Assembly (NCBI GenBank): GCA_046290465.1
Contig: JBKAGP010000001.1
Coordinates: 5,504,001 to 5,568,000 of the forward strand
DNA from: Planctomycetota bacterium
Lineage (GTDB): Bacteria > Planctomycetota > UBA1135 > UBA2386
Length of the DNA stretch: 64,000 nt
Direction: 5' to 3'
The position numbers and the translations under genes were made by a program. Positions 9,647 through 51,518 of the stretch are shown piece after piece. The notes under the pieces were generated by a model. That model had not been told where the DNA came from. It saw only the letters and a list, made by a program, of their open reading frames with translations, and made no database searches. Position 1 is the stretch's first letter. Every line of letters begins with the position of its first letter.

Positions 9647-12496
9647 ATGATCTCCACCTTCTCCCGCGCCGCGATCCTCGCGTGTGCCGTGGCCGTCTCG
9701 GTGTCTGCGCAGGATCCTGCCAGGCATGCCAGCGGCAGTCTCCTGCTCCGATTCGCCTCGTTCGACCCGACCGTCAGCGCCCCCGAGCTGCCGGCCGGCC
9801 TCGCCAGCACCGCATCCCAGCGTCTGCAGATCGTGCAGTTCGCCGGGATCCCGACCCAGAACGGGCGCGATGCCATCGCCGCCGCCGGCGGCCAGATCGT
9901 CAGCTACCTGCCGGAGAACGCCTACGTGGTGCGCATCGATCCGGCCAGCGTCGCGGCCCTGCGCGCCGTCGACACCGTGCGCTGGGTCGGCTCCTACGAG
10001 CCGGCCTACCGCGTCGACCCGGCGCTGATCGTCGCCAACGCGTTCGCCGATGCGACGCCGGTCCGCTACGACATCGTGGTCGCCGACAAGCACGCCGACA
10101 AGCCGTCGCTGCGCCGCGCCATCGTGGCGATCGGTGGCGTCGTCGACGACCTGCACCACGGCGGCCTGCTGATGACCGCGACGCTGACCGGGCCGCAGCT
10201 GCTGCAGACGCTGTCGTTCGACCAGGTGCTGTGGATCAACGCCTGGTCCGCGCCGCAGGAGGACATGGACAACGCCCGCATCCAGGGCGGCGGCAACTAC
10301 GTCGAGAACCAGACCGGCTACACCGGTGTCGGCGTCAACGCCCACATCTACGAGGGCATCGAGGCCACGCACCCGGACTTCACCGGTGGCGCGACCAACG
10401 TGCGCAGCAGCGGCAACGCGCAGACGCACGGCCACTGCACCGGCGGCATCGTGTTCGGCAACGGCACGTCCAACCCGGCGGTGCGCGGCATGGCGCCGGA
10501 CGCGGGCAAGTTCTACACCAACTACGGTTCGGTGCAGGGCTCGCGCTGGCAGGTCGTGTCGGACCTGGTCAACATCCACGACGTCAGCCACACGACGGCG
10601 TCGTGGGGCGGCAGCCGCACGTTCTTCTACAACGCGACGTCGGCCGATTCGGACGACCTCGTGTTCGACCACGACATCGCCTGGACCCAGAGCCAGTCGA
10701 ACGCCGGCAACCAGGATTCGCGTCCCGAAGCCTGGGCCAAGAACATCTTCTCGATCGGCGGCGTCAACCACAACAACGACAGCAACCCCAACAACGACTC
10801 GTGGCAGGGCGGCGGCGCGTCGATCGGCCCGGCGTCCGACGGCCGCATCAAGCCGACGCTGTGCGCCTACTACGAGAACATCGGCACGTCGGACCGCAGC
10901 GGCAGCTCGGGCTACTCGAACCAGAACTGGTACTCGAACTTCGGCGGCACGTCGGGCGCGACGCCGATCGTCGCCGGCCACAACGTGATCGCGATCGAGA
11001 TGTTCACGGACGAGGTCGTGCCCGGCTTCGGTCCGTTCGGCAACCAGCTGCGGGTGCCCGGCGGCTCGTCGCACGAGAACCGTCCGCACTTCCCGACGCT
11101 CAAGGCGCTGCAGGTCGTCAGCGCGGCCCAGTACGCGTTTACCGGGGCGAGCAGCGACAACCGTCGCGAGCACCAGGGCTGGGGCTTCCCGGACCTGCGC
11201 AAGATGTGGGACCTGCGCGGCAAGACCTACATCATCGACGAGACCGACGTGCTGACGCAGGGCTCGGCGCGCTCGCACCCAATCACCGTCGCCGCCGGCG
11301 AACCGGCGCTGAAGGTCTGCCTCAACTGGAACGAGCCGGGCGCCAACCCGGCGTCGGCGCAGCACCTGATCAACAACCTGTCGCTCAAGGTCACGGCGCC
11401 GAACGGCACGATCTACTGGGGCAACCACAACCTCGAGAACGGCGTCTGGTCGGTTCCCGGGGGCAGTGAGGACACGGTCAACTCGCTCGAGTGCGTGTTC
11501 GTGCAGAACCCGCAGGCCGGCACCTGGAACGTCGAGGTCCTGGCGACCGCGATCGTGCAGGACAACCACGTCGAGACGCCGGCGGTCGACGCCGACTACG
11601 GCCTGGTGGTCACCGGCGGCACCGGGTCGAACATCATCTTTGCCAACTTCGCGACGTTCGGCACCGGCTGCAACGGCTCGGTGCCGGTGCCGGCTCCGCC
11701 GTGCAACGAGTGGAACCCGGGCGGCGGCGTGCTGACCAGCAGCACGACGACCGACGAGGTCATCTACCGCATCGGCATCAGCGGCACCGAGCAGATCCAG
11801 AGCTTCGAACTGCTGACGGCTTCGGTCGGTGGTGGGGTCGTGACGGTGCCGGCGCGCCTCTACATCGGCGGCACGCCCGGCCCGACGCCGGTCGCGACGA
11901 CGACGATGACGGTCGGCGGCACGCCCGGCTTCTACACCGCGACGTTCAACACGCCGGTGACGGTGTCGAACGCGTGCTACATCGGCATCGATACGTCGGC
12001 GCTCGACGTCTACCTGTCGGAGATCCAGTTCGGTTCGTTCAACGTCGCCTACTCGCGGCCGAACGCGGCTTCGCCGTGGACGCTGCAGGTGATCCGGCCG
12101 GCCTACGTCGTCAACTGCGTGCCGGACTACCAGGTCCCGTCGCTCGGCAACACCGGTCGTCCGGTGGTGGGCACGACCTTCGACGTCGACCTGTCCGACG
12201 CGCTGCCGTCGACGTTTGCGGTGCTGGTGCAGGGCCTGTCCGACCAGACGTTCCCCGGCGGCACGCTGCCGGCCACGCTGCCCGGCACCCAGGGCTGCGA
12301 CATCCTGGTCTCGCCCGAGGTGACCGACGCGATCGTGACCGACGCACAGGGTGCCGGCAGCCAGACGATCTCGGTGCCCAACTCGAGCGCTCTGGAAGGG
12401 CTCGACGTGTTCTACCAGTGGGTGGTGCTCGACGCGCAGGCGAACGGCATCGGCCTGGTGACGTCGAACGGAGGCAAGGCGTTGCTGGGGCAGTAA
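9647..12496 (+). CDS. Secreted S8 (subtilase) serine peptidase with shared C-terminal domain
   Basis: Signal peptide ending VSAQ; THGHCTGG (His), GPASDGRIKP, FGGTSGATPIVAG (Ser), QGWGFP. Confidence 0.88.
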   Translation: MISTFSRAAILACAVAVSVSAQDPARHASGSLLLRFASFDPTVSAPELPAGLASTASQRLQIVQFAGIPTQNGRDAIAAAGGQIVSYLPENAYVVRIDPASVAALRAVDTVRWVGSYEPAYRVDPALIVANAFADATPVRYDIVVADKHADKPSLRRAIVAIGGVVDDLHHGGLLMTATLTGPQLLQTLSFDQVLWINAWSAPQEDMDNARIQGGGNYVENQTGYTGVGVNAHIYEGIEATHPDFTGGATNVRSSGNAQTHGHCTGGIVFGNGTSNPAVRGMAPDAGKFYTNYGSVQGSRWQVVSDLVNIHDVSHTTASWGGSRTFFYNATSADSDDLVFDHDIAWTQSQSNAGNQDSRPEAWAKNIFSIGGVNHNNDSNPNNDSWQGGGASIGPASDGRIKPTLCAYYENIGTSDRSGSSGYSNQNWYSNFGGTSGATPIVAGHNVIAIEMFTDEVVPGFGPFGNQLRVPGGSSHENRPHFPTLKALQVVSAAQYAFTGASSDNRREHQGWGFPDLRKMWDLRGKTYIIDETDVLTQGSARSHPITVAAGEPALKVCLNWNEPGANPASAQHLINNLSLKVTAPNGTIYWGNHNLENGVWSVPGGSEDTVNSLECVFVQNPQAGTWNVEVLATAIVQDNHVETPAVDADYGLVVTGGTGSNIIFANFATFGTGCNGSVPVPAPPCNEWNPGGGVLTSSTTTDEVIYRIGISGTEQIQSFELLTASVGGGVVTVPARLYIGGTPGPTPVATTTMTVGGTPGFYTATFNTPVTVSNACYIGIDTSALDVYLSEIQFGSFNVAYSRPNAASPWTLQVIRPAYVVNCVPDYQVPSLGNTGRPVVGTTFDVDLSDALPSTFAVLVQGLSDQTFPGGTLPATLPGTQGCDILVSPEVTDAIVTDAQGAGSQTISVPNSSALEGLDVFYQWVVLDAQANGIGLVTSNGGKALLGQ

Positions 12497-12650
12497 CCGC
12501 GCGCGCGAAGCGCGCGCGGAGCGCGAAAGCGCGCGCAAAGCGCGCGCGTCAGCGCTGGCCTCACCTCCCCAACCGCGCACCCAAAGCGCGCGCAAGCGCG
12601 CGCGTCAGCGCCACCCCCACACCCCACACCCCACACCTCCCACACACTCC
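12497..12650. repeat. Low-complexity intergenic tract: (CG)n runs, ~29-bp direct repeat and C-rich tract
   Basis: aaagcgcgcgcaaagcgcgcgcgtcagcgc (12526-12555) recurs at 12583-12611, followed by ccacccccacaccccacaccccacacctccc. Confidence 0.8.
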
Positions 12651-13631
12651 CTACCCCTTCCCAACCCGCCCCACCAACTCCCGCACCTCCCGCGCCGGAA
12701 TCGCCAACGTCTCGATCCGCCCCGCACGCGCGACGTTCACCCCGACACACCGACCATCCAGCCCGATCACCGGGCCGCCGCAGTCCTCCGGCTTCAGCAC
12801 CGTGTCGTGCTGCAACACCCGCTGAAAGCCGCTGCGCACCTCGCTCAGCTCGCCCCAGACGCTCTCCTGGTTGCTTCGCATCGGGCTCGAGTTGGTGCCG
12901 AGTTCGACCTGGAACGTGACGCGCTCGGCGTCGCGCAGCACGACGACCTCGATCTTGTCACCGGGCTTCTGCCGGCGGATCGCAGCGCGCAGCGCGTCGG
13001 TGTCGTCGATCTCCTCGCCGTCGAACGCGACCACGACGTCACCGCCGCGGATGCCGGCCGCCTTCGCGGCGCCGTGGGCGACGGCCTCGTCGATCTTGGC
13101 GATGCCACCGTTGGGGTTGGCGAAGCGGATGCCCAGGAACGCCCGCGGCCGCGTGTGCACGTACGGTGCCGCAGCCAGGATGCCGACGCCGAACGGCTTG
13201 TCGCTGCCGTCGACGCTGGCCAGGAATGCGCCGGGCTTCGGCTCCTGCTCGGCCCACTGCACCGGCACCAGCTTCGCGCCTTCGACGCGCAGCAGCGCCA
13301 GGTCCGACGGTCGGTCGAAGGCGACCTGCACGCACGGCCACGACGCGTCGCCCTGGTCGATTGACAGTTCGACCGGTTGGCCGGCCTTGGCGGTGCGCGA
13401 CGTCAGTTCGCTGAGCTTGGTGACCACCAGGTCCTTGCCGACGACGGTGCCGAGCACCATCGCGCGCTCGTCGACGCAGACCTCGACGACGCTGCGGTTG
13501 GCGGTCGCGACGACCGGCTTCCACAGCTTGCGCACGGCATCGCCCTGGCTGAGGCTGCGCATGCTCTGCGCGGGCAGCGCGAGCGGGAGCGCCGCGACCA
13601 GCGCGGCGGCGGAGAGGGCGCGGGGGTTCAT
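12651..13631 (-). CDS. PDZ-containing trypsin-like protein, probably catalytically degenerate
   Basis: AFLGIRF PDZ; VTKLSE in place of TxxH; QHDTVLKPEDCGGP in place of GDSGGP. Confidence 0.8.
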   Translation of the reverse strand: MNPRALSAAALVAALPLALPAQSMRSLSQGDAVRKLWKPVVATANRSVVEVCVDERAMVLGTVVGKDLVVTKLSELTSRTAKAGQPVELSIDQGDASWPCVQVAFDRPSDLALLRVEGAKLVPVQWAEQEPKPGAFLASVDGSDKPFGVGILAAAPYVHTRPRAFLGIRFANPNGGIAKIDEAVAHGAAKAAGIRGGDVVVAFDGEEIDDTDALRAAIRRQKPGDKIEVVVLRDAERVTFQVELGTNSSPMRSNQESVWGELSEVRSGFQRVLQHDTVLKPEDCGGPVIGLDGRCVGVNVARAGRIETLAIPAREVRELVGRVGKG

Positions 13632-14656
13632 CGGCGGGCTCCTTGCACGATCGGCAGTTCCAGTTCGACGCCCTTGCCGTCGCGTTCGACGACGACCTGC
13701 ACGCGGTCGCCGATGCGGAAGTCGCGCAGGATGCGCAGCACGTCGCGACGCGACTCGATCTCGGTGCCGTCGATCTCGAACAGGCGGTCGCCCTGCTGCA
13801 GGCCCGCCTTGGCGGCGTCCCCGTCCTCGGGCACCTCACCGAACACCGGGCAGCCGTCGCCGTAGGTCAACGGCACGCCGAAGTCGGGTCGGCTGCGGCC
13901 GCGGCGGCGGCGCGCCTCGGTGACCTTGCCCTCCTGCAGTTGCTGCCACTCGGCGACCAGCGCGTCGACCGGGGCGTGCATGTTCATCGCGAGGTTGCCG
14001 TTGATGCGGCTGTTGATGCCGACGACCCGACCCTGCATGTCGAACAGCGGTCCACCCGAGTCGCCGCCCTGCATCGTGCAGTCGGTGACCAGGTAGCCGT
14101 TCTCGGGCACGCGCAGCACGCGGCCGAGGCGCGCGGGGGCGGTGCGGCCCGGCTTGCGGCCGCTCGGGTGGCCGAGCATCAGCACCCACTGGCCGCGCTT
14201 CAGCTCCGACGACCTGCCGATCTCGGCTGCGGCGTGCTGGCCCTCGGTGTCGATGCGCACGAGGCTGACGTCGCTCTGGTGGTTGGCGCCGAGCGACGTG
14301 CCCTTCAGGCGCTTGCCATCGGTCAGCCGGATGTCGACCTCCTTGTCGGCGGTCAGCGTCACGTGCGCCGCGCACAGCAAGAACGGCTTGCCGTCGCGTT
14401 GCACCAGCACGCCGCTGGCGCCGGGCAGCGCGACCGTTGCGGGCAGCACACGCTGGATCAGCTTCTGCACGTGGTCCTGCATCGCCCGCAGCTCGGCCAG
14501 GCTGGCCGGGTCGTCACCGGCGAAGATCTCGGCGAGGCGCTCGGCGGAGACCGTGGTCTCGGCCGGGCCGGTCGATACGGGCGGGGGAGTCTGGCGCTGC
14601 GCGGCGAGCGCGGTCGCCATGGCCATTGCGGCGGCGACGAAAACGGTTCGGCTCAT
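13628..14656 (-). CDS. S1C/HtrA-like serine protease with PDZ domain
   Basis: ATG 14656 (MSRTVFVAAAMAMATALAAQ); CAAHV, SDVSL, GGDSGGPLFD triad. Confidence 0.88.
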   Translation of the reverse strand: MSRTVFVAAAMAMATALAAQRQTPPPVSTGPAETTVSAERLAEIFAGDDPASLAELRAMQDHVQKLIQRVLPATVALPGASGVLVQRDGKPFLLCAAHVTLTADKEVDIRLTDGKRLKGTSLGANHQSDVSLVRIDTEGQHAAAEIGRSSELKRGQWVLMLGHPSGRKPGRTAPARLGRVLRVPENGYLVTDCTMQGGDSGGPLFDMQGRVVGINSRINGNLAMNMHAPVDALVAEWQQLQEGKVTEARRRRGRSRPDFGVPLTYGDGCPVFGEVPEDGDAAKAGLQQGDRLFEIDGTEIESRRDVLRILRDFRIGDRVQVVVERDGKGVELELPIVQGARR

Positions 14657-14848
14657 TGCAGATCTGAGGCTAGCGGAACGGGGCGGTCGGAAACGGGCCG
14701 TGGGACGGCAGATACACAAGCGCAACGAAAACGGGGTGACGGCCGGGGGCGTTTTCCGCCTCTGGGGGTGTCGCCGGACTGCCGGCGGCAGGCGCGCCCG
14801 GTCGGGCCGCGCCCTTCGTGTAACCCCGCAGCGAATCCCCAGATACCC

Positions 14849-16678
14849 ATGCTTCGTACCCTGCCCCTGTTCGGCGCGGCCTGCCTGTTGGCCGCCCACG
14901 CGAGCGCCCAGTGCTTCTCGGCCTCCGGCACGTCGATCGCCGGCCAGATGACGGCGACCACCATCTACACGGTCGATGACGAGGGCATCAGCCCCGACCT
15001 CGCGTTCGGCTTCCCGTTCCCGCTCGACGGCACCAACTGGACGCACTTCGTGGTCTCGTCCAACGGCGAGATCTACCTGACCGACGGCACCGGCGCGGTC
15101 GGCTCCGTGCTCTACGGCGTCACCAACGTCAACGCCCTGCGCGGCGTCGCCGGCGACTCCCCGCGCATCTGCGGGTTTGCCGGGGACCTGACCGCGGTGC
15201 CGAACCTCGCCAGCTGGGACGTGCTGGTCGACTCGAGCGTCGCCGGCGAGGTCAAGGTGACCTGGGTCGGGGTGCGCCACTACCTCGGCGGCGAGGACTG
15301 GAACATGAGCGTCAAGATGAACGCCGCCGGCATCGTCGAGTTCGACTACGAAGGCAACTTCGGCACGCCGGGCATCTTCGACATCACCGGCATCTCGGCC
15401 GGCGACGGCGTCGGTGCCGCGACGACCCCGTCGAGCGACCTCGACCAGGGCGCCGACTCCGGCACGCTGGCGCTGCTCTACGAAACCGGCTGGGCCAACG
15501 GCTTCGACCTCAACGGCAAGGGGCTGACGATCATCCCCAACGGCCAGGGCGGCTTCACCAGCCTGCTGACCTGCGGCAGTGCCCGGCACGACAGCGTCGG
15601 CGCCGGTTGCTACGACGTCGGCCGGGCTTCGTTCTACCAGTGGTTCACCGACGCGGGCGTCGCCTCGGCGACCCTGACCGGCAACGCGATCAACCTGGCG
15701 CCGACCGGCGACGGCTACCTCGCCAGCTGGCTGCCCGGCATCGCGCAGGCGCTCTACGTGCCGCCGAGCGCGAACGCGACCAACCTGCCGGTGCTCAACG
15801 ACGACGAAGTGACGTTCACGCCGGCGACCGGCTTCCCGATCCCGGGCGGCACCGTCAACGAGCTGACCGTGCAGGGCAACGGCATCGTCGCGTTCGGCGC
15901 CGGTCCGACCGAGCCGACCGTCGACAACTGGATCCCGTCGCCGGAGCGCATGCTCGACGCCTACCACGGCGGCGTCTACTTCTGGCACGCCTACAACGAG
16001 GAGGAGAACGGGGACGTCTGGGCCGAGGAGCTCAACGGCACGATCTACATCACCTTCCAGGACGTCGAGAACTTCCCGCTGGGCGTGGCCAACCCGAGCA
16101 CCTGGCAGCTGCAGATCAACCAGGCGACGGGCGACATGTTCCTGCTGTTCGTCAGCATCGACTCGGACAACAACCCGATCTTCGGCATCTACCCGCAGGA
16201 CCACCTGATCGGCTTCACGCCCCCGGGCGCGTCGGTCGATCCGGGCCCCGTGGACCTCGCGACCGGCCTGCCGGTGGTGACGTCGCCCGACGTGTTCGCG
16301 CTGGCGATGAGCGCCTCGCCGGCCCCGATCAGCACCACGTCGACCGGCTCGACGGTCGACTACACGGTCGCCAACTCGCAGGAGATCACGCCCAGCGGTG
16401 GCATCGCCGCCGGCATCGTCGCCCTGAGCCTGACCTCGGGCAACCTCGACCTGACCGGGGTCGGCGCGCCGGGTTGCTTCGCCTACGTCGGCGGCCTCGA
16501 CCTGACGCTGCCGTTCGTCGGTCCGGTTGGCCAGCCGCACACGGCGTCGCTGCAGCTGCCGCCGGGCCTGCCGCAAGGCCTGATGATCTACGCCCAGGCC
16601 GCGTGCCTGTCGGATGGCGTCAACGCGTTCGGGATCCTGACCTCGAACGGCATCGAGAGCCGCGTCGGCCCGAACTGA
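14849..16678 (+). CDS. Secreted protein with two nidogen/NIDO-like repeats and shared C-terminal domain
   Basis: Signal ending ASAQ; DDEGISPDLAFGFPFPLDG..VSSNGEIYL and DDEVTF..GFPIPGG..VQGNGIVAF; ends NAFGILTSNGIESRVGPN. Confidence 0.7.
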   Translation: MLRTLPLFGAACLLAAHASAQCFSASGTSIAGQMTATTIYTVDDEGISPDLAFGFPFPLDGTNWTHFVVSSNGEIYLTDGTGAVGSVLYGVTNVNALRGVAGDSPRICGFAGDLTAVPNLASWDVLVDSSVAGEVKVTWVGVRHYLGGEDWNMSVKMNAAGIVEFDYEGNFGTPGIFDITGISAGDGVGAATTPSSDLDQGADSGTLALLYETGWANGFDLNGKGLTIIPNGQGGFTSLLTCGSARHDSVGAGCYDVGRASFYQWFTDAGVASATLTGNAINLAPTGDGYLASWLPGIAQALYVPPSANATNLPVLNDDEVTFTPATGFPIPGGTVNELTVQGNGIVAFGAGPTEPTVDNWIPSPERMLDAYHGGVYFWHAYNEEENGDVWAEELNGTIYITFQDVENFPLGVANPSTWQLQINQATGDMFLLFVSIDSDNNPIFGIYPQDHLIGFTPPGASVDPGPVDLATGLPVVTSPDVFALAMSASPAPISTTSTGSTVDYTVANSQEITPSGGIAAGIVALSLTSGNLDLTGVGAPGCFAYVGGLDLTLPFVGPVGQPHTASLQLPPGLPQGLMIYAQAACLSDGVNAFGILTSNGIESRVGPN

Positions 16679-16751
16679 TCGGCTGACCAAGGGCGATGCG
16701 ATCGGGGCGCGCAGCCCCGCTCGCGTTGCGCTGGCCCGCCCGCGTTGCGCG

Positions 16752-18488
16752 CTACTGCACGACGTTGAAGGCCTGGTGCGTCGACAGGCGCGCCACGCCG
16801 AGCGAGGCGCTCGAGCCGACCGCCTGCACGAACAGGCGCACGCCGACGAACGGCAGGATGTTCGGCAGCGAGTAGGGCAGCTGCGCGTCACCGTTGGCAT
16901 CGAGCGTGCTCATGCCGAGGTAGACCATGTTGCTCTGGTCGATGCGCAGGTCGCCGTGCGGCGGCATCGGGCTCGGCACCACCAGTTCGGTCGGCGACGC
17001 GAACACGCACAGCGTCTCGTTGGGCTGCCACTGGAAGTCGAGTTCGCCGCTGCTGCCGATGCGGAACTCCTGCTCGTCGTCCGAGATCATCGCGACCGGC
17101 ACGGCCAGCGTCGGCTCCTTGTCGCTCGCGTCCGGGATGCCGTCGCCGTCGTAGTCGCCGGTGTAGGAGATCACCGTCATCATGCCGCGCATCATGTGGT
17201 GCATCTCGTGGCAGTGGTACAGCCACGTGCCCGGGTTGTCGGCGTGCCACTGGCACGACCAGGTATCGCCCGGTTGGCCCGCCGGCATGATCAGGATCGT
17301 GTCCATGATCGGCGGGTGGGTGGTGCCGCCGGCCGTGCCCATCAGCTGGACGAAGTGGCCGTGCATGTGCATCGGGTGCACGTGCGTGGGCGACGGCGTC
17401 GTGGTGGTCAGATCGAACTGGATGATCTCGTCGAAGGCGACGCTGGTCGGAGTGACGTTGGGCCACGCCTCGTTGTTGATCGTCCAGGTGCCGCCGCCGG
17501 GGCCCGGCTGCACGGCGAGCGCCATCGGGTAGGTGCGATCCGGCGTGGCGGTGATCGGGTGCGTCGCCGGCCAGAAGCTCGCCAGCTGCGCGTAGCTGAG
17601 CAGGGCACCGCTCGACAGGTTGGTGGGCACGAACGACGGCGACGGGTCGGCGCCGGTCTGGCCCTGGTAGCGAACGACGCCCCGCACCACCGTGGCGCTG
17701 CGGTTCTGCAGCGCGGCGACGGCCAGGCTCCAGACGCCGGGGTTGTTGCAGTCGACGAGCACGTCGTAGCGTTCGCCGATGCCGACCGGGATCGCGTCGG
17801 TCACGACCGGCTGCACGCGGTTGCCGTCCTTGTGGGTGACGGTCATCGGGTGGCCGTCGAGCGCGACGACGTAGTTGGTGCGCGCCGCCATGTTGGAGAA
17901 CCGCAGCCGCAGCTGGTTGCCCTGTGCGACCGTGATCGCCGACTGGCCGTCACTGGTCTTGCCGTTGAGCAGGTGGCCGAAGAACGTGCCGCCGGTCACC
18001 TGCGCGTTCCAGTCGTCGAGCGCGATCACCTGGTCGATGTCGGACGCCGGGTCGTTGGCCGGATTGGCGGGGTCGACGATCAGCACGCCGTACATGCCGG
18101 CGTCGAGCTGGTGGTGGTTGTCGCTGTGCGGGTGGAACCAGTAGGTGCCGGGCGCGAGGTTGTCGAGTTCGTAGGTGAACTCCTGGCCGGGCGGCGTCTC
18201 CGGACGCGAGATGCGCTGGGTGCCGTCCATGCCGAGTCGCATCGGCTGGCCGTGCACGTGCAGGATGGTCGTCTCGTCGAGTCGGTTGACCAGCCGGATG
18301 CGCAGGGTGTCGCCTTCGGTGGCCCGGACGACCGGACCGGGCAGGATGCCGTTGTAGAGCATCGCCGGCTCGCTGGTGTAGCCGGGGCCGAGGTCGACCG
18401 TGCCTTCGTCGGCGACGATCGTGGTGTCGATGATGTTCTGAGCGGGCAGCGCGGCGGCGAGCAGCGCGAGCAGGGGGGTGCGGTACAT
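16752..18488 (-). CDS. Secreted multicopper oxidase with shared-type C-terminal domain
   Basis: HVHG, WFHPH, HPMHMHGH, HCHEMHHMMRGMM copper motifs; start ATG 18488 (MYRTPLL). Confidence 0.92.
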   Translation of the reverse strand: MYRTPLLALLAAALPAQNIIDTTIVADEGTVDLGPGYTSEPAMLYNGILPGPVVRATEGDTLRIRLVNRLDETTILHVHGQPMRLGMDGTQRISRPETPPGQEFTYELDNLAPGTYWFHPHSDNHHQLDAGMYGVLIVDPANPANDPASDIDQVIALDDWNAQVTGGTFFGHLLNGKTSDGQSAITVAQGNQLRLRFSNMAARTNYVVALDGHPMTVTHKDGNRVQPVVTDAIPVGIGERYDVLVDCNNPGVWSLAVAALQNRSATVVRGVVRYQGQTGADPSPSFVPTNLSSGALLSYAQLASFWPATHPITATPDRTYPMALAVQPGPGGGTWTINNEAWPNVTPTSVAFDEIIQFDLTTTTPSPTHVHPMHMHGHFVQLMGTAGGTTHPPIMDTILIMPAGQPGDTWSCQWHADNPGTWLYHCHEMHHMMRGMMTVISYTGDYDGDGIPDASDKEPTLAVPVAMISDDEQEFRIGSSGELDFQWQPNETLCVFASPTELVVPSPMPPHGDLRIDQSNMVYLGMSTLDANGDAQLPYSLPNILPFVGVRLFVQAVGSSASLGVARLSTHQAFNVVQ

Positions 18489-18636
18489 GAAGGGTCGTGC
18501 GTTGGATGCAGGGAGCGCCGAGCAGGATAACCCACGAACGGTCCGCATCGTTTCGTTCGACCTCACGCGAACGTCACCCCACTGCCATCGGCGTCATCGC
18601 GCCGGCCCGATGGTGCGCGAGGGGGTGACCGGCCAC

Positions 18637-20002: not shown

Positions 20003-22321
20003 TTACAGGCCGACCGCGCCTTCGCCGGTGTTGGAGGTGATGAAGCCGCGCGGGTTGGCGGCGACGTCGAAGCCGACCGCCTGGTGCCAGACCGATTGGC
20101 CGAGCCACAGCGGATCGTTGGGGATCGGCAGCGCCCATTGGCCGCTGCCGGCGGTCTGCGGCACGACCTCGAGCACGATCATGTCGAGGCCGAGTTCGCA
20201 GCCGGGCATGCCGACCGGGCCGAGATCGACCTTCGGGTCGAACGGCGTCACGCCCGCGATCATCACGAACGCCGGCACCGCGGTCGGCGCATTGGCGACG
20301 TCGACCAGCATCGTCGAGCCGAGCACCGGGCGTGCGCTCGCAACGCCCGCGACCTGCATGGCCAGGCCGCTGGAGCCGGCACAGCCGCTGCCGCTGGTCC
20401 GGTAGCCGGCGATCGGCGCCGCCGCGCCGGCCCAGATCTGCTCGGCGCGGTCGTAGGCGTCGGTGCCGATCTCCTGGCCCATCAGGCGCCCCGGGATGTC
20501 GTCGCACGGCGGGTGGATGCCGCCCCAGATGCGCGACAGCGAGCACTGGTCGGAGGCGTCGTAGTAGCTGGCCCACTGCAGCGTGACGGTCACGCTCGGC
20601 CCCTCCTCGAACACCAGGAACTGGTTCTGCGGACAGACGAACTCGCCGAGGCCGCCGGGGAAGTACGGCGAGCCGGTGAACCGGTCCATGACCACCGCCG
20701 CGGCGCGGCTGTAGGTGCTGTGGCCGGAGACGTAGCCGGCGAACGGCGGCGTCACGAACGTCGGCCGCTGGTACGGCCACCAGTTCTCGAGCAGGATCCA
20801 GCCGACGCCGGCCAGGTCGGTCGCCGGGTTGCTGATGTAGTCCGGTCCGCGCCAGGCGTAGACGGCGACCTTGCCCTCCTCACCGGCGAGGTGTTCGTGA
20901 CGCTGGCCGGGCGCGGTGCTCGCCAGCGTGACCTCCTCGATGAAGCCCGGCCGGATCGTCACCGCCTCGGGGTCGGCCGGGTTGGCGAAGTAGCGATCGC
21001 CCAGGTAGCGCAGCGCGCTGATCGGGCGCAGGTAGTCGTACCAGCCCTTGACGCCCCACGCCGAGATCGCCGCGTCGTGCATCGCGCCACCGAGCGCCAG
21101 GTAGCCCTTCACGTCCCACTCGAGGTCGCTGACGACCGGGCCGGTGCCGCCGATCTGCTTGGCGGTCTGCGGGTGGTCGGTGACGTAGTTGAAGATCGTG
21201 AACCAGTGGCCCGGCGGCGTCTCCGAGTCGGGGCCGTCGGCCCAGAACTCGGCGAGCACGCGCGCGTAGTCGGCGCGCGGGACCATCTGCGGCGCGTACG
21301 GCTGGCCGGTCACCGGGTTGGTCGCGTAACCGGTGCCGAGGTCGCCGCCGTTGGCGAAGTCGTAGAACGCCGGGTAGCTGGCGGTGCTGGTCGGCAGCTG
21401 GTTGAGCTGGATGTTGCCGATCGACGCCGGCGATGCGTCGATCATCACGCCGTCGGCCGGGTCGAGGTGCGACGACCACGCCGAGACCATCTCGAAGCCC
21501 CACTTGTAGTCGTTCGCCGACGGCGTGTTGAGCAGCGGCGGCGCGCCCGGGTCGTGGTAGACCCACCATTCGGAGCCGAACCGTTCGTGCACCGTCAGGT
21601 CGTTCTGCGACAGCGCGAACTGCTTGACCCGGCCCCACTCGGGGCTGAGGAAGTCCGGGTAGCCGGTCGGGATCGGGATGCCCGACTGGCCGATGAAGAA
21701 CTGCAGCGCCAGCGGTTGCCAGCGGTCCGGGTTCCACATGTTCGGGTTGCCGGGGAAATCGGGCAGCAGCGGCGCGTTGACCGGGAAGTAGATCGTGTTG
21801 GCGTAGCCGTTGGCTTCGTTCGAGCGGTCGTCGAGGCCGTAGGCGAGCACGGTCGCGGCGATGCGGTTGCCGATCGCGGCCGGGGTGTTGCCGGTCGTCG
21901 TCGTGTTCGACGCGACGTAGCCGAGCTGCGTCATCATGCCGTCGTAGAGCGGCAGCATCGTCGGGCCGCCCGGCGACGCCTGGAAGCGCGCGGTCAGGAT
22001 CCGGTAGGCGGCGAAGCTGAGCGCCTCGCTGCGCCACGCGTCGATGTTCGGGTCGGTGGTCGGGTGCTCCTCGTCGAACAGCACGCAATCGGCCGTCGGG
22101 CTGTAGGTCGCCCACGCGTCCCACATCGCCACCGAGACGTGGTAGAGGTTGCGCGCGTGCACCGTCGGCCGGGCGAAGTCGCTGCGGATCGACTCGAGCA
22201 GCAGCTCGTTCCACTCGCGGGCTTCGGAGTGCTGGGCGCGGGCTTCGGCAGCTGCCGAGCCGAGGATGGCGAGCGCGAGCGAGAAGCGCAGCGCACGCCG
22301 GCAGGAAGCGAGGTCGGTCAT
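20003..22321 (-). CDS. Secreted vanadium-dependent haloperoxidase-family protein with shared C-terminal domain
   Basis: VKGWYDYLRP, PPFAGYVSGHSTYS, SRIWGGIHP vanadate-binding motifs; signal ending ARAQ. Confidence 0.85.
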   Translation of the reverse strand: MTDLASCRRALRFSLALAILGSAAAEARAQHSEAREWNELLLESIRSDFARPTVHARNLYHVSVAMWDAWATYSPTADCVLFDEEHPTTDPNIDAWRSEALSFAAYRILTARFQASPGGPTMLPLYDGMMTQLGYVASNTTTTGNTPAAIGNRIAATVLAYGLDDRSNEANGYANTIYFPVNAPLLPDFPGNPNMWNPDRWQPLALQFFIGQSGIPIPTGYPDFLSPEWGRVKQFALSQNDLTVHERFGSEWWVYHDPGAPPLLNTPSANDYKWGFEMVSAWSSHLDPADGVMIDASPASIGNIQLNQLPTSTASYPAFYDFANGGDLGTGYATNPVTGQPYAPQMVPRADYARVLAEFWADGPDSETPPGHWFTIFNYVTDHPQTAKQIGGTGPVVSDLEWDVKGYLALGGAMHDAAISAWGVKGWYDYLRPISALRYLGDRYFANPADPEAVTIRPGFIEEVTLASTAPGQRHEHLAGEEGKVAVYAWRGPDYISNPATDLAGVGWILLENWWPYQRPTFVTPPFAGYVSGHSTYSRAAAVVMDRFTGSPYFPGGLGEFVCPQNQFLVFEEGPSVTVTLQWASYYDASDQCSLSRIWGGIHPPCDDIPGRLMGQEIGTDAYDRAEQIWAGAAAPIAGYRTSGSGCAGSSGLAMQVAGVASARPVLGSTMLVDVANAPTAVPAFVMIAGVTPFDPKVDLGPVGMPGCELGLDMIVLEVVPQTAGSGQWALPIPNDPLWLGQSVWHQAVGFDVAANPRGFITSNTGEGAVGL

Positions 22322-22508: not shown

Positions 22509-23009
22509 TCACTTCGGGGCTTTGCGCGCCGGCGCCGGGGCGACGGGGGCCTGGCCGATGTGCGCGACCCGGGTCAGGGCGGCGAGGCGGCCGAGGTCGC
22601 TGCGCATCACCATCTCGGTGGTGCTGTACGAACCGTTGGCGTGCCGGTACCAGTCGACCCCGGCGTCGTTGCGTTCGACGGCGACGATCGGGCTCCACTC
22701 GCGCGGGCCCCAGTACTCGTGCAGCGGGGCCGCGTCGGTCGCGCCGTTGAGCGTCGGCACGTAGGTGCCGTCGGGCAGCAGCAGTTCGCGACGGTGGTCG
22801 GCGGCGGGGGCAGCGGTCGGTGGCGCCGTGGCGAGTCGGCCCCGGGCCGGGGCGGCCGGCGGCGGCGTCGCCGCGTCGACGCCCGTCCTGCTGGTCGTGC
22901 CCAGAGCCGGCTCGCCGTCCCGGCCGCCGGCGGCGAACGCCGCGCCGGCCCCGACTGCGAGCAACAGGACCGCGAGCAGCAGGGCCGCGACCGTGCCCGT
23001 GCGGATCAC
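22509..23009 (-). CDS. Hypothetical exported or membrane-anchored protein
   Basis: GTG start overlaps the upstream stop (GTGA); hydrophobic N-terminus, Pro/Ala linker, LLLPDGTYVPTLNG domain. Confidence 0.6.
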   Translation of the reverse strand: MIRTGTVAALLLAVLLLAVGAGAAFAAGGRDGEPALGTTSRTGVDAATPPPAAPARGRLATAPPTAAPAADHRRELLLPDGTYVPTLNGATDAAPLHEYWGPREWSPIVAVERNDAGVDWYRHANGSYSTTEMVMRSDLGRLAALTRVAHIGQAPVAPAPARKAPK

Positions 23010-24121
23010 AGGTGCACCGCCTGCGCGTTGGTCCACTGCGCGAGGTTGATGCCGGTGTCCCAGACGATCGCCTGCAGGATGATGTCGGAGCCCATCATGG
23101 TCGGCGGGATGCTCGCCGGCGGCGCCAGCGGCAGGTCGACCTCGCCGTTGCTCAGCGACGTGATGCCGAGCGGGATCGCCTGCGAGGTGTCGCCGATGTG
23201 GCTGTGCGCGATCAGCGTGCCGATCAGCGGCCAGACGAACAGCGGCGGCTCGAACTGGTAGTTCGCGCCGAGCATCACGACGCCGTTCGGCGCCAGCGAG
23301 TCGGTGATGCGGACCATCAGGCCGTCGCATCGCGGCGTGCCGCTGACGTCGGGCCACAGGCCGTTCATGCTCAGGTTGGCGCCGGGGGCGCCGAGGCGCG
23401 TGCTGTTCGGGTCGAGGCCACCGACGTGCAGGTTGGGTGACGTGACCAGCGGGCCGAGGATGTAGGTCCACGGGGTCGTGTAGGGCACGCCGTTGAGGCT
23501 GCCTCCCCAGGTCGGGTCGGGGGCGCCGAGGCGTTCGTTCTCGCCGACGGTCGCGGCGGTGCCGGCGCTCAGCAGGTCGGCGCGGAACAGCGCGTGGCCG
23601 TCGGTCGCGGGCCAGTTGGGGTTGGCGGGCAGATCGATGCCGACGTAGTAGCGGCCCTCCGACGGCGCGAACGTCGGCAGCAGCGCCAGCGGCGCTTGCG
23701 AGCCGAAGCCGTCGTTGACGATCCAGGTGCCGCGTGCGGTCGACGTCGACGGCGGCGACGTCAGGCCCGAGATCCGCAGCGCCTCGCCGGCCGGCGACAT
23801 GTCGGGGCCGGGGCCGTTCGGGTCCTGGTTGCGGATCACCACGTCGTAGGTCTCCGACGTCGACAGGTTCTCGTCGGCGAGCCAGTGGTAGACGCCGAAC
23901 AGGTAGATCGGGCCGTTGGCGTCGCCGACGCTGCGGAAGTGGTCGGTCGTCACCTCCATCATCGCCTCGGCCTGGTTGGCCATGTCCGGCCGGCCGACGT
24001 ACGACGTGCAGGTAATGGTCTGCCGCTCCGGGTCCTGCGGATAGAAGACGAACGGGTTGGTCTGGGCGAGGGTGGCTCCGGCCAGCAGGGCGACGGCGCC
24101 GAGGGTGCGCGTGTGGGTCAT
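23006..24121 (-). CDS. Secreted hypothetical protein with divergent shared-type C-terminus
   Basis: MTHTRTLGAVALLAGATLAQ signal; ends IPPTMMGSDIILQAIVWD...WTNAQAVHL. Confidence 0.75.
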   Translation of the reverse strand: MTHTRTLGAVALLAGATLAQTNPFVFYPQDPERQTITCTSYVGRPDMANQAEAMMEVTTDHFRSVGDANGPIYLFGVYHWLADENLSTSETYDVVIRNQDPNGPGPDMSPAGEALRISGLTSPPSTSTARGTWIVNDGFGSQAPLALLPTFAPSEGRYYVGIDLPANPNWPATDGHALFRADLLSAGTAATVGENERLGAPDPTWGGSLNGVPYTTPWTYILGPLVTSPNLHVGGLDPNSTRLGAPGANLSMNGLWPDVSGTPRCDGLMVRITDSLAPNGVVMLGANYQFEPPLFVWPLIGTLIAHSHIGDTSQAIPLGITSLSNGEVDLPLAPPASIPPTMMGSDIILQAIVWDTGINLAQWTNAQAVHL

Positions 24122-46070: not shown

Positions 46071-47510
46071 ATGACCTCCCGCACCCTGCTGACCCTGTCC
46101 GCCGCCGCCGCGCTCGCCGCGACCGCATCCGCCCAGATCCCCGGCTACCTGGTGACCTACTCGCAGACCGAGAGCACGTTCTCGGGCAGCGGCGGCACCG
46201 TGCTCGGCCAGTTGCTGCCCAACGAGGTCAGCAGCTTCGCGCCGAACAGCGTCACCTGCGCCACCGCCTCGGCCGAGAAGTGGCTGCCGCGCACCGCGTC
46301 GCACGTGATGGCCGGCGACGAGGACGGCGACGGCCTCTACTTCAACCCGTCGATCTTCGGCCCGATCGACGCGCTGCTCAGCGTGCCCAACGCAGCCGGC
46401 ATCGGCGGCGACACCCAGCGCAGCGTGTTCTGGTCGGTGTCCAGCGCGATGGGCAACAACATCAGCGCGACGCCGTTCCGCCCCGGCGACGTCGCCCGGA
46501 TCGTGCGCAACGCGGTCGGCGAAGGCCAGGTCGAGCACTTCATCCGCCAGGAGATGATCCAGTCGGCGCTCGGCCTGCCGGCCAGCTCGATCGTCGACGT
46601 CGACGCGATCGCGTTCGGTCCCAACTACGGCGTGTTCTTCTCGCTCGACCAGGACACGCTGGCGATGACCGACTGCGGCCCGACCCTGGTCCGCGACGGC
46701 GACGTGCTGTGCATCCCGCCGTACGCGCTGAACTACACGCCCGACCTGCGCATCGCCGGCGTGGTGCCGTCGGCGGCGGTGGTCGTCTACGACGAGAATA
46801 CGATGGACGCGTTCACGGCCAACGCGCAGGTCACCGACCGCTTCGGCAACTGCCTGTCTGCCGCGGTCGACGTCGAGTCGCTGGTGATCGACTACACCGG
46901 CCCGAGCGTCGCCGTCACGTCGTGCGCGGGCATCACGCTGCCGGTGCCGTCGCTGCTGTTCTCGGTCGAGACCGGCACCGGCGCGAGCGTGCTGACGACC
47001 GCGTTCGGCGGCCAGATCCACAACACGCTGTGCGGCCCGGCCGGCACCAGCTGCGGCTTCGGGCCGACGTGGGGGCCGCAGATGGGCATCCAGCCGACCT
47101 CGGCGACCACGGGCGCGCCGAGCTACGTCAACGCGCTGACCGGCGCGCGCACCTGCCACAACGTGCTCGAGCCGCAGCAGCACGTCATGAACGTGTTCCC
47201 GCTCGGCGCCCCGGCCGGCGCCAACGCGATCGACTACGGCTCGGAGTTCGCGTTCAACGTCGCGCTGGTCGAGATCGTGCCGCCGACCGTGCCGTGGTCG
47301 ATCCCGGCGTTCCCGTGGTCGCAGATGTGCTTCCCGGACCTCTACGCCAGCAGCATCCTGGTGCACGCGTTCCCGCTGTTCGGCACCTTCGGCAGCTTCC
47401 CGATGGTCGCGATCCCGCCGGCCTGGAGCGGCAAGGTGCTCTACCAGAACGTCGGCTTCGGCGCCGGCACGTTCGAGCTGAGCACGCCCTGCGTGGTCGA
47501 CGTGCAGTAG
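46071..47510 (+). CDS. Secreted Cys-containing hypothetical protein, tandem paralog 1
   Basis: Signal ending ASAQ; colinear with 47847..49271 (GSGGTVLGQLLPNE, SAEKW.PRT..HVMAGDEDGDG, FTANAQVTDRFG). Confidence 0.8.
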   Translation: MTSRTLLTLSAAAALAATASAQIPGYLVTYSQTESTFSGSGGTVLGQLLPNEVSSFAPNSVTCATASAEKWLPRTASHVMAGDEDGDGLYFNPSIFGPIDALLSVPNAAGIGGDTQRSVFWSVSSAMGNNISATPFRPGDVARIVRNAVGEGQVEHFIRQEMIQSALGLPASSIVDVDAIAFGPNYGVFFSLDQDTLAMTDCGPTLVRDGDVLCIPPYALNYTPDLRIAGVVPSAAVVVYDENTMDAFTANAQVTDRFGNCLSAAVDVESLVIDYTGPSVAVTSCAGITLPVPSLLFSVETGTGASVLTTAFGGQIHNTLCGPAGTSCGFGPTWGPQMGIQPTSATTGAPSYVNALTGARTCHNVLEPQQHVMNVFPLGAPAGANAIDYGSEFAFNVALVEIVPPTVPWSIPAFPWSQMCFPDLYASSILVHAFPLFGTFGSFPMVAIPPAWSGKVLYQNVGFGAGTFELSTPCVVDVQ

Positions 47511-47535
47511 CCGCACGCTGGTTCGAAGTCGAACG

Positions 47536-47569
47536 ACGGCCGCTCCGCGCGCACGCGTGGGGCGGCCGT
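47536..47569 (+). terminator. GC-rich hairpin after paralog 1
   Basis: acggccgctcc...ggggcggccgt inverted repeat; no U-tract. Confidence 0.4.
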
Positions 47570-47846
47570 CTCGCGTTCTGCGCAGCTGCCCGCCCCCAGG
47601 CCCTTGGCCGGTCCCGCCCCCAAAAGAAAGCGCCGCGGCTCCCCAGCCGCGGCGCTTCGTGCCCATCTCTCGGCTCCCCCTCAGGAGCCTTCTCGTCTGC
47701 AACCGCCCTGGACAACGGGCCCGAGCCCGTCGGCGTTGCAGGCGCCCTGCGGGGCGCCAAAAAAAACTGGGCCCTCGGCGTGCGCGCGGGGCCGGCTGGT
47801 TCTTCGGGGGGTGAACGACCACCAACCACCAACCCCGGATCGAACC

Positions 47847-49271
47847 ATGAACCAGCTCTCCCTGTCCCTGATCGCCACCGCCGCCCTCGCCGCCGCCACC
47901 ACGGCCCAGGCGCCGACCTTCCTGCTGACCTACTCGCAGCCCGAGATGACCAACTCGGGCAGCGGCGGCACCGTGCTCGGCCAGCTGCTCCCCAACGAGA
48001 TCGCCTACGTCGACTTCACCGTGCCGTGTGCGCTCGCCTCGGCCGAGAAGTGGATGCCGCGCACCTGCACCCACGTGATGGCCGGCGACGAGGACGGCGA
48101 CGGCGTGCTCTTCGAGAACAACCTGCTCGGCCGCATCGACGCGCTGGTCACGACGGCCAACTGGACCTCGCCGGTCGGCGGCGACACCCAGCGTTCGATC
48201 TGCTACTCGCCGTCGCAGCCGATGGGCACCACGATCAGCGGCGGGCCCGGCCTGCGCCCCGGCGACATCGGCCGCATCGTGCGCGTCGGCGCCGCCGACG
48301 GCCAGGTGCAGCACTTCATCACGCAAGAACTGCTCAACAACGCGCTCGGCCTGCCGCCGGCCTACGCGATCGACATCGACGCCGCCGCGTTCCAGCCGAA
48401 CTACGGCCTGTTCTTCTCGGTCGACGCCGACGTGATCGCGATGACCATGTGCGGCCCGATGATGATCCGCGACGGCGACGTGCTGTGCCTGCCCGGCGGC
48501 ACGATGGGCTACACCAGCGACCTGCGCGTCGCCGCGACCACGCCCAACAGCGCGGTCGTCGTCTACAGCGAGGCGCAGATGAACGTCTTCACCGCCAACG
48601 CGCAGGTCACCGACCGGTTCGGCGCCTGCGTCACGACGGTCGGGGACGTCGAGTCGCTCGAGATGGACCTGTTCGGTCCGACGCTGACGCTGACGCCGTG
48701 CCCGGGCGTCACGGTGCCGGTCCCCAACCTCTACTACTCGTGCGAGAACGGCACCGGCGCCAGCCTGCTGCAGGTCGCCGGTGGCGGCAGCATCGTGCCG
48801 ACCCCGTGCGGCCTGGCCGGCACGCCGTGCTCGTCGGGCGGCCCGACCTTTGGGCCGCAGATGGGCGTGCGACCGCCGAGCACGACCACCGGTGTCGCCA
48901 GCTTCGTCAACGCCCTGGCCAACACGCGGGTCTGCACGCACACGCTCGAGCCGCAGCAGCACGTCGTGTTCAGCCCGGCCCCGCCGGTGCAGGTCGACTA
49001 CAACAACCCGTTCGTGCTCAGCCTGATCCTGATCGAGCTGGTCTCGCCGGTCGTGCCGGCCTCGGTCCCGGCGTTCCCGTTCTCGCCGACCTGCTTCCCC
49101 GGCCTCTACGCGCCGTCGATCATCTCGTGGACGCCGGTCGGCCCCGGCTTCGGCTCGTTCCCGACCCCGGCGTTCCCGGCCGCGTTCACCGGCAAGGTGC
49201 TGTTCCAGGGCGTCGGCTTCTCGACCGGCACGTTCGAGCTGAGCACGCCGGCGGTGATCGACGTGCTGTAG
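47847..49271 (+). CDS. Secreted Cys-containing hypothetical protein, tandem paralog 2
   Basis: Signal ending TTAQ; same blocks as paralog 1; ends GKVLFQGVGFSTGTFELSTPAVIDVL. Confidence 0.8.
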   Translation: MNQLSLSLIATAALAAATTAQAPTFLLTYSQPEMTNSGSGGTVLGQLLPNEIAYVDFTVPCALASAEKWMPRTCTHVMAGDEDGDGVLFENNLLGRIDALVTTANWTSPVGGDTQRSICYSPSQPMGTTISGGPGLRPGDIGRIVRVGAADGQVQHFITQELLNNALGLPPAYAIDIDAAAFQPNYGLFFSVDADVIAMTMCGPMMIRDGDVLCLPGGTMGYTSDLRVAATTPNSAVVVYSEAQMNVFTANAQVTDRFGACVTTVGDVESLEMDLFGPTLTLTPCPGVTVPVPNLYYSCENGTGASLLQVAGGGSIVPTPCGLAGTPCSSGGPTFGPQMGVRPPSTTTGVASFVNALANTRVCTHTLEPQQHVVFSPAPPVQVDYNNPFVLSLILIELVSPVVPASVPAFPFSPTCFPGLYAPSIISWTPVGPGFGSFPTPAFPAAFTGKVLFQGVGFSTGTFELSTPAVIDVL

Positions 49272-49422
49272 GCGAGCATGGGGCGCGGCCGGCAGCGGCC
49301 GCAGCGACGGACCAGCGGCCGCGCGCCCCGATCGGGGTGCGCGGCCGTTCGTCGTCGGCGGACGTGCCGGGAGTCGTCGGAGCGGGCTTGTCCGCGACCG
49401 GCCGAGCCTCCAGGCTCTGGCC

Positions 49423-50082: not shown

Positions 50083-50132
50083 CGGCGGGCCCCGCCGAGG
50101 TTCGCGCCCTCGGCTAGACTGAGGCTCGCCCC

Positions 50133-51518
50133 ATGCCCCACACCTCGAAGCTCGTCCGGGCCGCGGCCGTCGCCGCGCTCGCGTTTCCGCTCGCCGCCCA
50201 GAACGTCTGGACCCAGGTCGTCACCGCCAACGCGCCGAGCCGCGGCCTGTGGCCCGGCATGACGTTCGCCACCGCGACCGGCGCCTGCTACCTCTACGGC
50301 GGCGCGGGCGGCGGCACGACCAGCAACGAGACCTGGTCGTACGACGGAGTCGACTGGACCCTGCTGGCGACGACCGGCGATCCCGGCGAACGCCACACGT
50401 TCGGCATCTGCTACGACGAGGTCCGCAGCGTCGTGGTGATGTTCGGCGGCAGCGACAACAACTACGTGGCCAACGGCGAGACCTGGGAGTTCGATCCGCT
50501 GACCAGCACCTGGACCGACGCGACGCCGGCCGCCGGCCCCGGCCCGCAGGCGCGGTGGGGCTGCAAGCTCGCCTACGACATCAGCCGCAACGTCACCGTG
50601 CTGTACGGCGGCTGGTCGGGTGCGGGCTTCACCAACGACACCTGGGAGTGGGACGGCACCGCCTGGACCCAGGTGACGACCAACAACCTGCCGTCGCCGC
50701 GCGATCGCTTCGGCATGTGCTACGACCTCTTGCGCAGCCGGGTGGTGCTGTTCGGTGGCATCAGCAGCCAGGCCTCCGACGAGACCTGGGAATACGACGG
50801 GGCCGACTGGACGCTGGTGGCGACGGCGACGACGCCGCCCGCGCGGCAGAAGAACTACCTCGCCTACGACGTGCTGCGCGGCGTCAGCATCATGCAGGGC
50901 GGCCAGGCCAACGCGCAGCAGCTGCTCGACTGCTGGGAGTACGACGGTAGCAACTGGCGGCTGGTGCCGAGCACGCCGGCGCCGGCGCGCGGCGAAAACG
51001 CGACCTGCTACGACCTGCTGCGCGGGCGCGTGGTGGTGTTCGGTGGCTACAGCTTCAACGGCGTCAACACCGACACGTGGGAGTTTGCGCCGGCGACGAC
51101 GCCGCAGTTCACCAGCTACGGCGCCGGCTGCGTCGGTTCGGCCGGCGTGCCGAACCTCGCCGCGACCGGCGGCGTGCTGCCGGCGATCGGTGCCAACTTC
51201 GGCTTCACGATCGGCAACCTGCCGGCCGCCGGTGGCGCGGGCGTGCTCGCGGTCGGCGAGAGCAACTACCAGCTCGGCGCCCTGCCGCTGCCGTTCGACG
51301 CCGGCCTGATCGGCTGGACCGGCTGCACCGTCTACGTCGCGCCGATCGGCAGCGTCGGCTTCGTGCACCCGGCCGGGGTCGGCAGCGTGCCGCTGGCGAT
51401 CCCCAACGACCCGCTGCTGGCGGGCTTCACGTTCCACGCGCAGGCGGCGAGCCTCGATGCGACCGCGCCCAACGGCGCGGTGGCGCTCAGCGCGGCGGTC
51501 GAGGTGATCGTCAACTGA
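50133..51518 (+). CDS. Secreted Kelch-like repeat protein with shared C-terminal domain
   Basis: Six repeats of YD....V.FGG....ETWE.DG..W; then FTSYGAGCVGS...IPNDPLLAG...HAQA. Confidence 0.85.
   Translation: MPHTSKLVRAAAVAALAFPLAAQNVWTQVVTANAPSRGLWPGMTFATATGACYLYGGAGGGTTSNETWSYDGVDWTLLATTGDPGERHTFGICYDEVRSVVVMFGGSDNNYVANGETWEFDPLTSTWTDATPAAGPGPQARWGCKLAYDISRNVTVLYGGWSGAGFTNDTWEWDGTAWTQVTTNNLPSPRDRFGMCYDLLRSRVVLFGGISSQASDETWEYDGADWTLVATATTPPARQKNYLAYDVLRGVSIMQGGQANAQQLLDCWEYDGSNWRLVPSTPAPARGENATCYDLLRGRVVVFGGYSFNGVNTDTWEFAPATTPQFTSYGAGCVGSAGVPNLAATGGVLPAIGANFGFTIGNLPAAGGAGVLAVGESNYQLGALPLPFDAGLIGWTGCTVYVAPIGSVGFVHPAGVGSVPLAIPNDPLLAGFTFHAQAASLDATAPNGAVALSAAVEVIVN

Follow-up and report, generated by a model that had tools for sequence, protein, structure and literature searches.

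Eight exported proteins encoded in a 64,000-nucleotide stretch of a planctomycete genome (C1:5,504,001-5,568,000 of a single-contig assembly of 6.59 Mb, 94% complete, ~70% GC; hereafter the window) end in look-alike tails, which raises the question of whether these tails are one domain and what it does for its carriers. We found an unnamed domain of ~130 residues that firmly closes six of the eight proteins and likely the other two (a tandem pair), recurs in ~247 genes of the genome on diverse cargo, lies mostly at the C-terminus and, on one enzyme family, is swapped for other tails. That the domain is a retained module, holding its protein non-covalently on the outside of the cell envelope, strikes us as an evenly balanced proposition; its job in this planctomycete clade would be the one that dockerins and exosortase tags likely perform in neighbouring lineages.

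A shared domain on the exported proteins of the window

A dicodon gene caller (5,041 genes genome-wide) recovered all eight genes where the sequence-only reading had placed them, and the six tail motifs quoted there were all found in real reading frames, 32-40 amino acids (aa) ahead of the stop codon. With a profile hidden Markov model (HMM) built from the tails, the genes and their domain copies are as follows.

9647-12496, plus strand: S8 protease gene, 949 aa, Peptidase_S8 (Pfam)
12098..12493, plus strand: C-terminal domain copy of the S8 protease, HMM E 6e-31; the copy used for AlphaFold2 folding
14849-16678, plus strand: gene for a 609-aa exported protein without Pfam or NCBIfam match ('NIDO-like' label unverified)
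16268..16675, plus strand: C-terminal domain copy of the 609-aa protein, HMM E 9e-17
16752-18488, minus strand: multicopper oxidase gene, Cu-oxidase families (Pfam)
16755..17081, minus strand: shortened C-terminal copy of the multicopper oxidase without the first Cys motif, HMM E 1e-11, profile positions 34-142
20003-22321, minus strand: vanadium haloperoxidase-like gene, DUF6851/VCPO (Pfam)
20006..20401, minus strand: C-terminal domain copy of the haloperoxidase, HMM E 2e-30; tail swapped in orthologues
23006-24121, minus strand: gene for a 371-aa exported protein (gene caller)
23009..23395, minus strand: divergent copy of the 371-aa protein, half-domain model 18.4 bits; paralogue with the domain
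46071-47510, plus strand: tandem paralogue 1 gene, predicted beta-propeller plus terminal sandwich
47115..47507, plus strand: likely highly divergent copy of paralogue 1, from homologue tails and AlphaFold2 seven-strand pattern
47847-49271, plus strand: tandem paralogue 2 gene, 57% identical to paralogue 1
48876..49268 (start approximate), plus strand: likely highly divergent copy of paralogue 2, from homologue tails and identity to paralogue 1
50133-51518, plus strand: Kelch protein gene, Kelch families (Pfam)
51111..51515, plus strand: C-terminal domain copy of the Kelch protein, HMM E 3e-29

The tail proposed as common to the S8 protease, the 609-aa protein, the haloperoxidase and the Kelch protein was thus readily recovered, as was the version on the multicopper oxidase that had been described as divergent. 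Pfam also backed the names given to the S8 protease, multicopper oxidase, haloperoxidase and Kelch protein, and lent no support to 'NIDO-like'. Divergent versions had been claimed for three further proteins. The 371-aa protein reached E=0.28 with the full HMM; its membership comes from the half-domain model (decoys above 12 bits: one reversed, none mid-protein) and from a full-length paralogue (E 1e-82) that has the domain at E 2e-9. For the tandem pair the match is indirect: there was no direct HMM match, hhalign gave a probability of 0.6-1.5%, and the half-domain model scored 3.3 bits for 46071 and 8.8 bits for 47847, the latter inside the decoy range. Among the tails of their homologues, 13 of 120 exceeded 12 bits on that model (best 17.7), and the final seven strands in the AlphaFold2 model of 46071 (predicted local distance difference test, pLDDT, 94.7) are spaced as in the domain model (offset 324-336). 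The pair likely belongs to the family; the model of paralogue 1 also gave a weak Foldseek match to a propeller-plus-PKD protein. In their own right, the tandem paralogues (46071-49271) form a conserved Cys-rich family of 287 homologues without Pfam match, often paired on one contig.

By our heuristics, all eight N-termini are signal-peptide-like and no basic tail occurs among the eight, as had been read from the sequence. The reported lack of transmembrane (TM) segments held for the five direct-match proteins, the scope of the heuristic TM scan, none of which was flagged.

On one enzyme family, the domain is exchanged for known attachment tags

We compared the 120 best homologues of the window's haloperoxidase. 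Their tails are this domain in 69 and a homologous form, subtype C, in 25; most of the other 26 carry different tails. Nine of the 33 homologues scanned had a GC-type dockerin tail (two above the cut-off) and two an IPTL-CTERM tail (one above the cut-off), while precomputed annotation shows a type I dockerin on one homologue. Haloperoxidases with swapped tails are 63-66% identical over the enzyme part, within a span of 63-69% for tail-swapping orthologues. Because known attachment tags occupy the same slot on these relatives, the domain's role is likely to keep its carriers attached to the cell surface. The swap thereby supports the anchoring half of the earlier analogy to C-terminal tags, of which the idea of a shared, lineage-restricted, unnamed module on diverse exported proteins also stood. 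Within the genome, a cargo protein with an N-terminal copy of the domain shares 49% identity across 429 aa with a lipoprotein that lacks it, and 46% with a plain exported protein.

Domain and dockerins also separate between genomes. Across 301 Planctomycetota genomes, 60 were domain-rich (at least 4 matches) and 34 dockerin-rich (at least 7 matches), with an overlap of 0; dockerin matches in domain-rich genomes numbered at most 5, and the GC-dockerin gave the same pattern.

Genome-wide scale, position and cargo

The genome-trained HMM matched 202 of 5,041 genes at E<=1e-4. Adding the half-domain model and another subtype, present in 15 genes and aligned to the first at an hhalign probability of 91%, gave a union of 247 genes, ~5% of the genome's genes. 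Pairwise identity among copies is ~28%, and none of the 202 proteins has two copies. The association with signal peptides was confirmed, in 227 of 247 carriers versus 1,265 of 4,113 other proteins, and lipoboxes were called in 5 of 232 exported carriers versus 233 of 1,498 other exported proteins; signal-peptide and TM calls are our own heuristics and overcall (31% of the background), and the contrast weighs more than the counts. Few tails are basic, with 0-1 Lys or Arg among the last eight residues in 154 of 176.

The cargo is diverse: the cargo parts of 191 carriers formed 103 clusters, and Pfam, run on 96 of the best 150 representatives, found Kelch and FG-GAP propellers, M12, M14 and trypsin-like proteases, a sulfatase, C-type lectin, LamG, PKD and beta-helix. 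CxxCH haem motifs occur in four carriers. A Gln right after the predicted (heuristic) signal-peptide cleavage site is very common, in 657 background proteins and 198 carriers, and recalls the 'Q-rule' of Bacteroidetes. We did not count a sigma-factor protein with a half domain (P0316) as a cytoplasmic occurrence, as this single record looks chimeric.

A strictly C-terminal position did not hold up. The domain ends within 10 aa of the C-terminus in 182 of the 202 proteins and farther away in 20, comprising 12 with an 11-50-aa extension and 8 beyond that. In seven carriers the complete domain follows the signal peptide immediately, and in one it is internal. N-terminal copies also account for the 4 of 36 matches lying far from the protein end in a distant carrier genome, G193, and occur in 4 of 150 cluster representatives; since the architecture recurs in both sets, it is not an assembly artefact. 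At least six genes, scattered and divergent, encode a signal peptide plus the domain alone, and the neighbourhoods of 13 short domain genes had no machinery in common. Nine exported proteins of 350-390 aa are built alike, with the domain followed by another 20-35 residues (G000:C1:302976, 468966, 1574717, 3264950, 3776803, 3869823, 4614759, 4707972, 6592983); this segment ends in a hydrophobic strand that may complete the N-terminal domain, in which case the shared domain would be an insertion. Given these N-terminal, inserted and stand-alone copies, a retained module fits better than a cleaved C-terminal tag.

Fold, signature and composition

AlphaFold2 confidently predicts a seven-strand immunoglobulin (Ig)-like sandwich (pLDDT 93; predicted template modelling score, pTM, 0.87). 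Conserved across copies are the elements PxxG, IP(N), LxG and SN, two cysteines and a near-invariant Gln. The 'G.GC' start of the pattern described earlier is missing in some members; the cysteines come and go together, with both in 100, neither in 44 and one in 46 of 190 copies (p=9e-11).

By sequence the domain matched no named family. NCBIfam, searched with the 8 proteins and 8 tails at E<=1, returned only unrelated families; Pfam gave no recurring match among 64 aligned tails, and PDB sequences at E<=10 no match. ESM Atlas holds 30 unnamed, Planctomycetota-dominated clusters without a common Pfam family. The best structural matches were Ig-like and macroglobulin-type domains, among them A2ML1, TEP1 and LILR Ig domains (Z 8.7-9.6, root-mean-square deviation [rmsd] 2.1-3.4 Å over 83-110 residues); with flat scores, 10-16% identity and a best Foldseek E of 2e-3, likeness to these generic Ig/macroglobulin-type domains means a common fold and no more. 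The C-terminal region of PorU (Z 7.4) stands among many tied Ig domains, and chains containing carbohydrate-binding modules (Z 7.2) are tied with many unrelated Ig domains. Foldseek rows for lipid-binding NPC2/Der f 2 (E 3e-3 to 9e-3) superpose at an rmsd of 6-11 Å and were discounted, and a homodimer prediction of the domain scored 0.00 in two runs, which carries no weight either way.

Charged residues make up 8.8% of the domain (Lys 0.3%, Asp 4.3%), 14.6% of carrier cargo and 24.7% of other signal-peptide proteins. In 18 homologue pairs the carrier was the less charged in 12 (median 16 vs 21%); three lipoprotein homologues with Gly-rich linkers were as low in charge as carriers. Because the cargo is low in charge relative both to other signal-peptide proteins and to most matched homologues, we read this as a shared non-periplasmic location of the carriers.

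A possible route to the surface and the search for partners

On the anchor reading, carriers would be exported through Sec, as their predicted (heuristic) signal peptides suggest. In the periplasm the two co-varying cysteines may then be joined in a disulfide, pinning down an apolar flap, the segment LPxxL...GxPGCxL, and the folded protein could cross the outer membrane via the type II secretion system, of which a gspDEF-like operon is conserved. Outside, the apolar domain would bind some common constituent of the envelope, for which outer-leaflet lipid or lipopolysaccharide or an abundant scaffold is the likeliest candidate, and no dedicated processing enzyme would be needed.

We searched for known machinery. 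PorV was found in none of five carrier genomes (86-97% complete) and the cohesin PF00963 in none of five genomes, with positive controls that gave signal; SprA, PorU-type C25 and PorP/SprF gave no match, their positive controls being silent too. The source genome has seven secretins, three Omp85 matches and two exosortase-family matches. Reciprocal blastp against G193, which measures 2.36 Mb, yielded 169 exported-looking shared proteins, and the 79 scanned with Pfam included LptD-like barrel, porin, TolC-type, secretin, TPR and peptidase proteins. This comparison revealed neither dedicated outer-membrane machinery co-occurring with the domain nor a dedicated unannotated outer-membrane barrel common to both genomes. 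Both do have the gspDEF-like operon (E and F are so labelled for their position and similarity), and the shared secretin has three Secretin_N stretches (Pfam) and two conserved genes downstream. The neighbourhoods of 14 unannotated shared proteins were not telling, and 26 barrel-like or lipoprotein candidates gave no convincing match in a search that a divergent partner would escape. With non-terminal and stand-alone copies, and no type IX secretion system (T9SS) genes or dedicated machine found, the other half of the earlier analogy—a C-terminal tag for a dedicated machine—is weakened.

Three paralogous Gly-rich proteins of ~1,150 aa (G000:C1:1763608-1767114, 1998181-2001630, 2521255-2524647) share a conserved C-terminus, and two have lipobox-like starts. 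One query matched 13 of the 301 genomes of the phylum sample; every one of the 13 carries the domain, and some have the Gly-rich genes in tandem. These paralogues are a possible surface scaffold; a universal scaffold of Gly-rich lipoproteins was not borne out at 13 of 301 genomes with one query. Separately, a six-gene cluster of exported amidohydrolase-family proteins (G000:C1:2568698-2580788 and L137) keeps its gene order in the distant G193 and has, in that genome, a short gene with the domain in its vicinity.

Weighing the alternatives

The domain might instead be a signal for export across the outer membrane that the type II system or an unidentified translocon recognises and that is perhaps removed afterwards, an explanation we regard as rather unlikely. 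The predicted seven-strand Ig-like fold resembles that of the C-terminal domain (CTD) of T9SS cargo as described in the accessible part of PMC4804311; single copies sit at the C-terminal end in the large majority of carriers, and the cargo (proteases, sulfatase, lectins, propellers), without lipoboxes, is typical of secreted proteins. Such a signal sits less well with intact copies directly after the signal peptide, here, in G193 and among the representatives, with the family that extends 20-35 aa past the domain, with searches that did not find PorV in any of five carrier genomes under a valid control, nor SprA, PorU-type C25 and PorP under silent ones, and with the lack of an unannotated barrel common to the genome and G193. 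It is improbable, in our view, that the domain is a periplasmic tether, to peptidoglycan or the inner face of the outer membrane, or a mere stabilising terminal cap without a shared partner. The haem-motif carriers suit periplasmic maturation, no dedicated export machine turned up, and the conserved residues, mostly Gly, Pro and Cys, could be purely structural; yet carrier composition differs from that of ordinary signal-peptide homologues, the swap partners are surface-type tags, and a cap is not expected singly on 103 unrelated cargo clusters. Quite improbable, too, is a self-assembling coat unit, in an S-layer-like lattice or fibre, with stand-alone copies as the bulk subunit and fusions as decoration. 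The genes with little besides the domain, its very apolar composition, strand-swapped dimers of which the T9SS CTD is capable (accessible part of PMC4804311) and a weak Foldseek match to the Deinococcus HPI S-layer chain (E 3.5e-3) would fit. Against it, subunits that co-assemble into a lattice would be expected to share more than ~28% identity, the genes for stand-alone copies are dispersed and have diverged, the HPI match is one among hundreds of generic Ig matches, and the word 'S-layer' is absent from the available portion of the Saltatorellota preprint (10.1101/817700).

Several points weigh against the retained anchor itself. Some 90% of copies stop no more than 10 residues short of the C-terminus; an export signal would account for this bias at least equally well, and a conformational export signal could act from either protein end. 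Type II export of the carriers is assumed from gene presence alone, the G193 comparison yielded no binding partner, and every functional step is inferred. The tail swap comes from one enzyme family, what GC-type and planctomycete dockerins do is itself a matter of annotation, and the exclusion of domain and dockerins at genome level is between clades and so not independent evidence. The composition test covers 18 related pairs, 6 of which run in the opposite direction, and the overcalling heuristics flagged a TM-like stretch in 30 of the 202 carriers. A bolder version, which we hold to be doubtful, casts the domain as an address label, portable to either end of any protein, for an as yet undescribed system of outer-membrane display that is the defining feature of the OM190/Saltatorellota-type envelope; the label would send ~5% of the proteome to the surface by way of a receptor or an insertion into lipid that has no relation to T9SS, sortases or cohesins.

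Distribution and a link to a cultured strain

In searches of Planctomycetota genomes and cluster representatives, 30 of 31 relatives matched the domain, as did 66 of the 301 genomes of the phylum sample, where the domain-rich genomes were split family by family; 27,030 cluster representatives at 50% identity matched. Subtype C is homologous to the domain (hhalign 93%, E 3e-7 over 110 columns) and, in one family of the source genome's order, expanded in 7 of the 8 genomes sampled. Subtype C also closes the haloperoxidase of a strain in culture, Poly30 (Saltatorellus ferox). Poly30 is placed in the OM190 group in the accessible part of the Saltatorellota preprint (10.1101/817700), and we infer that the source genome and the domain expansion belong to an OM190/Saltatorellota-type clade.

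Some records stand apart. Genome G021 (same order, 91% complete, 2.9 Mb) has no match to the domain, a natural loss. Records titled Luminiphilus sp. and Brocadiaceae (L062, L063) come from genomes with 81 and at least 150 domain matches, which are probably mislabelled OM190-type planctomycete bins. P0339, a domain-bearing haloperoxidase 79% identical to the window's, comes from a eukaryotic protein set and is probably bacterial contamination of the assembly. Elsewhere in the window, 34274-37978 encodes a lipoprotein-like protein of 1,234 aa that lacks the shared domain and has FG-GAP repeats and a weak IPT/TIG match; for 9600-18600, no RNA record was listed.

Relation to known systems and significance

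Among known tags, the type A T9SS CTD of Bacteroidota corresponds to Pfam Por_Secre_tail/NCBIfam TIGR04183. The T9SS CTD is a seven-strand Ig-like sandwich closing Sec-exported proteins (accessible part of PMC4804311). The present domain shares that strand count in its predicted fold and a place, one copy each, at the end of many unrelated Sec-exported proteins, but it has no sequence match to the CTD, is longer (~130 aa), has a Cys-pinned apolar insert and also occurs N-terminally, inserted or alone, in genomes where PorV was not found (five carrier genomes). GC-type (NF041540) and type I (PF00404) dockerins take the same slot on the haloperoxidase and are present in many copies per genome in other Planctomycetota families; unlike them, the domain is unrelated in sequence, does not match PF00404 or NF041540, is expanded in different families and occurs where cohesin was found in none of five genomes. 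Dockerins adopt an EF-hand fold, whereas the domain is predicted to be all-beta. PEP-CTERM/IPTL-CTERM (TIGR04174) likewise sort diverse cargo to the envelope from the C-terminus, and IPTL-CTERM replaces the domain on haloperoxidase orthologues; theirs is a short motif with TM helix and basic tail, in contrast to a folded domain with neither. The domain works like known terminal sorting or anchoring modules but, on the features compared, does not qualify as a T9SS CTD, exosortase signal or dockerin.

A full-text literature search, with subscription journals and bioRxiv supplements outside its scope, found no description of the domain. New here are the swapped tails, the mutual exclusion of domain and dockerins, the copies away from the C-terminus, the connection to a strain in culture and the negative partner search. 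The family is very large and unannotated, with its tens of thousands of representatives and one in twenty genes of this genome. Because the Poly30 haloperoxidase ends in a homologous subtype, the question can be tested at the bench in a cultured strain, and the dockerin swap makes the role of many cohesin-less planctomycete dockerins testable as well. Should the domain be an anchor, a single profile would allow prediction of which proteins a widespread, mostly uncultured planctomycete clade displays on its surface, among them proteases, sulfatases, haloperoxidases, lectins and propellers.

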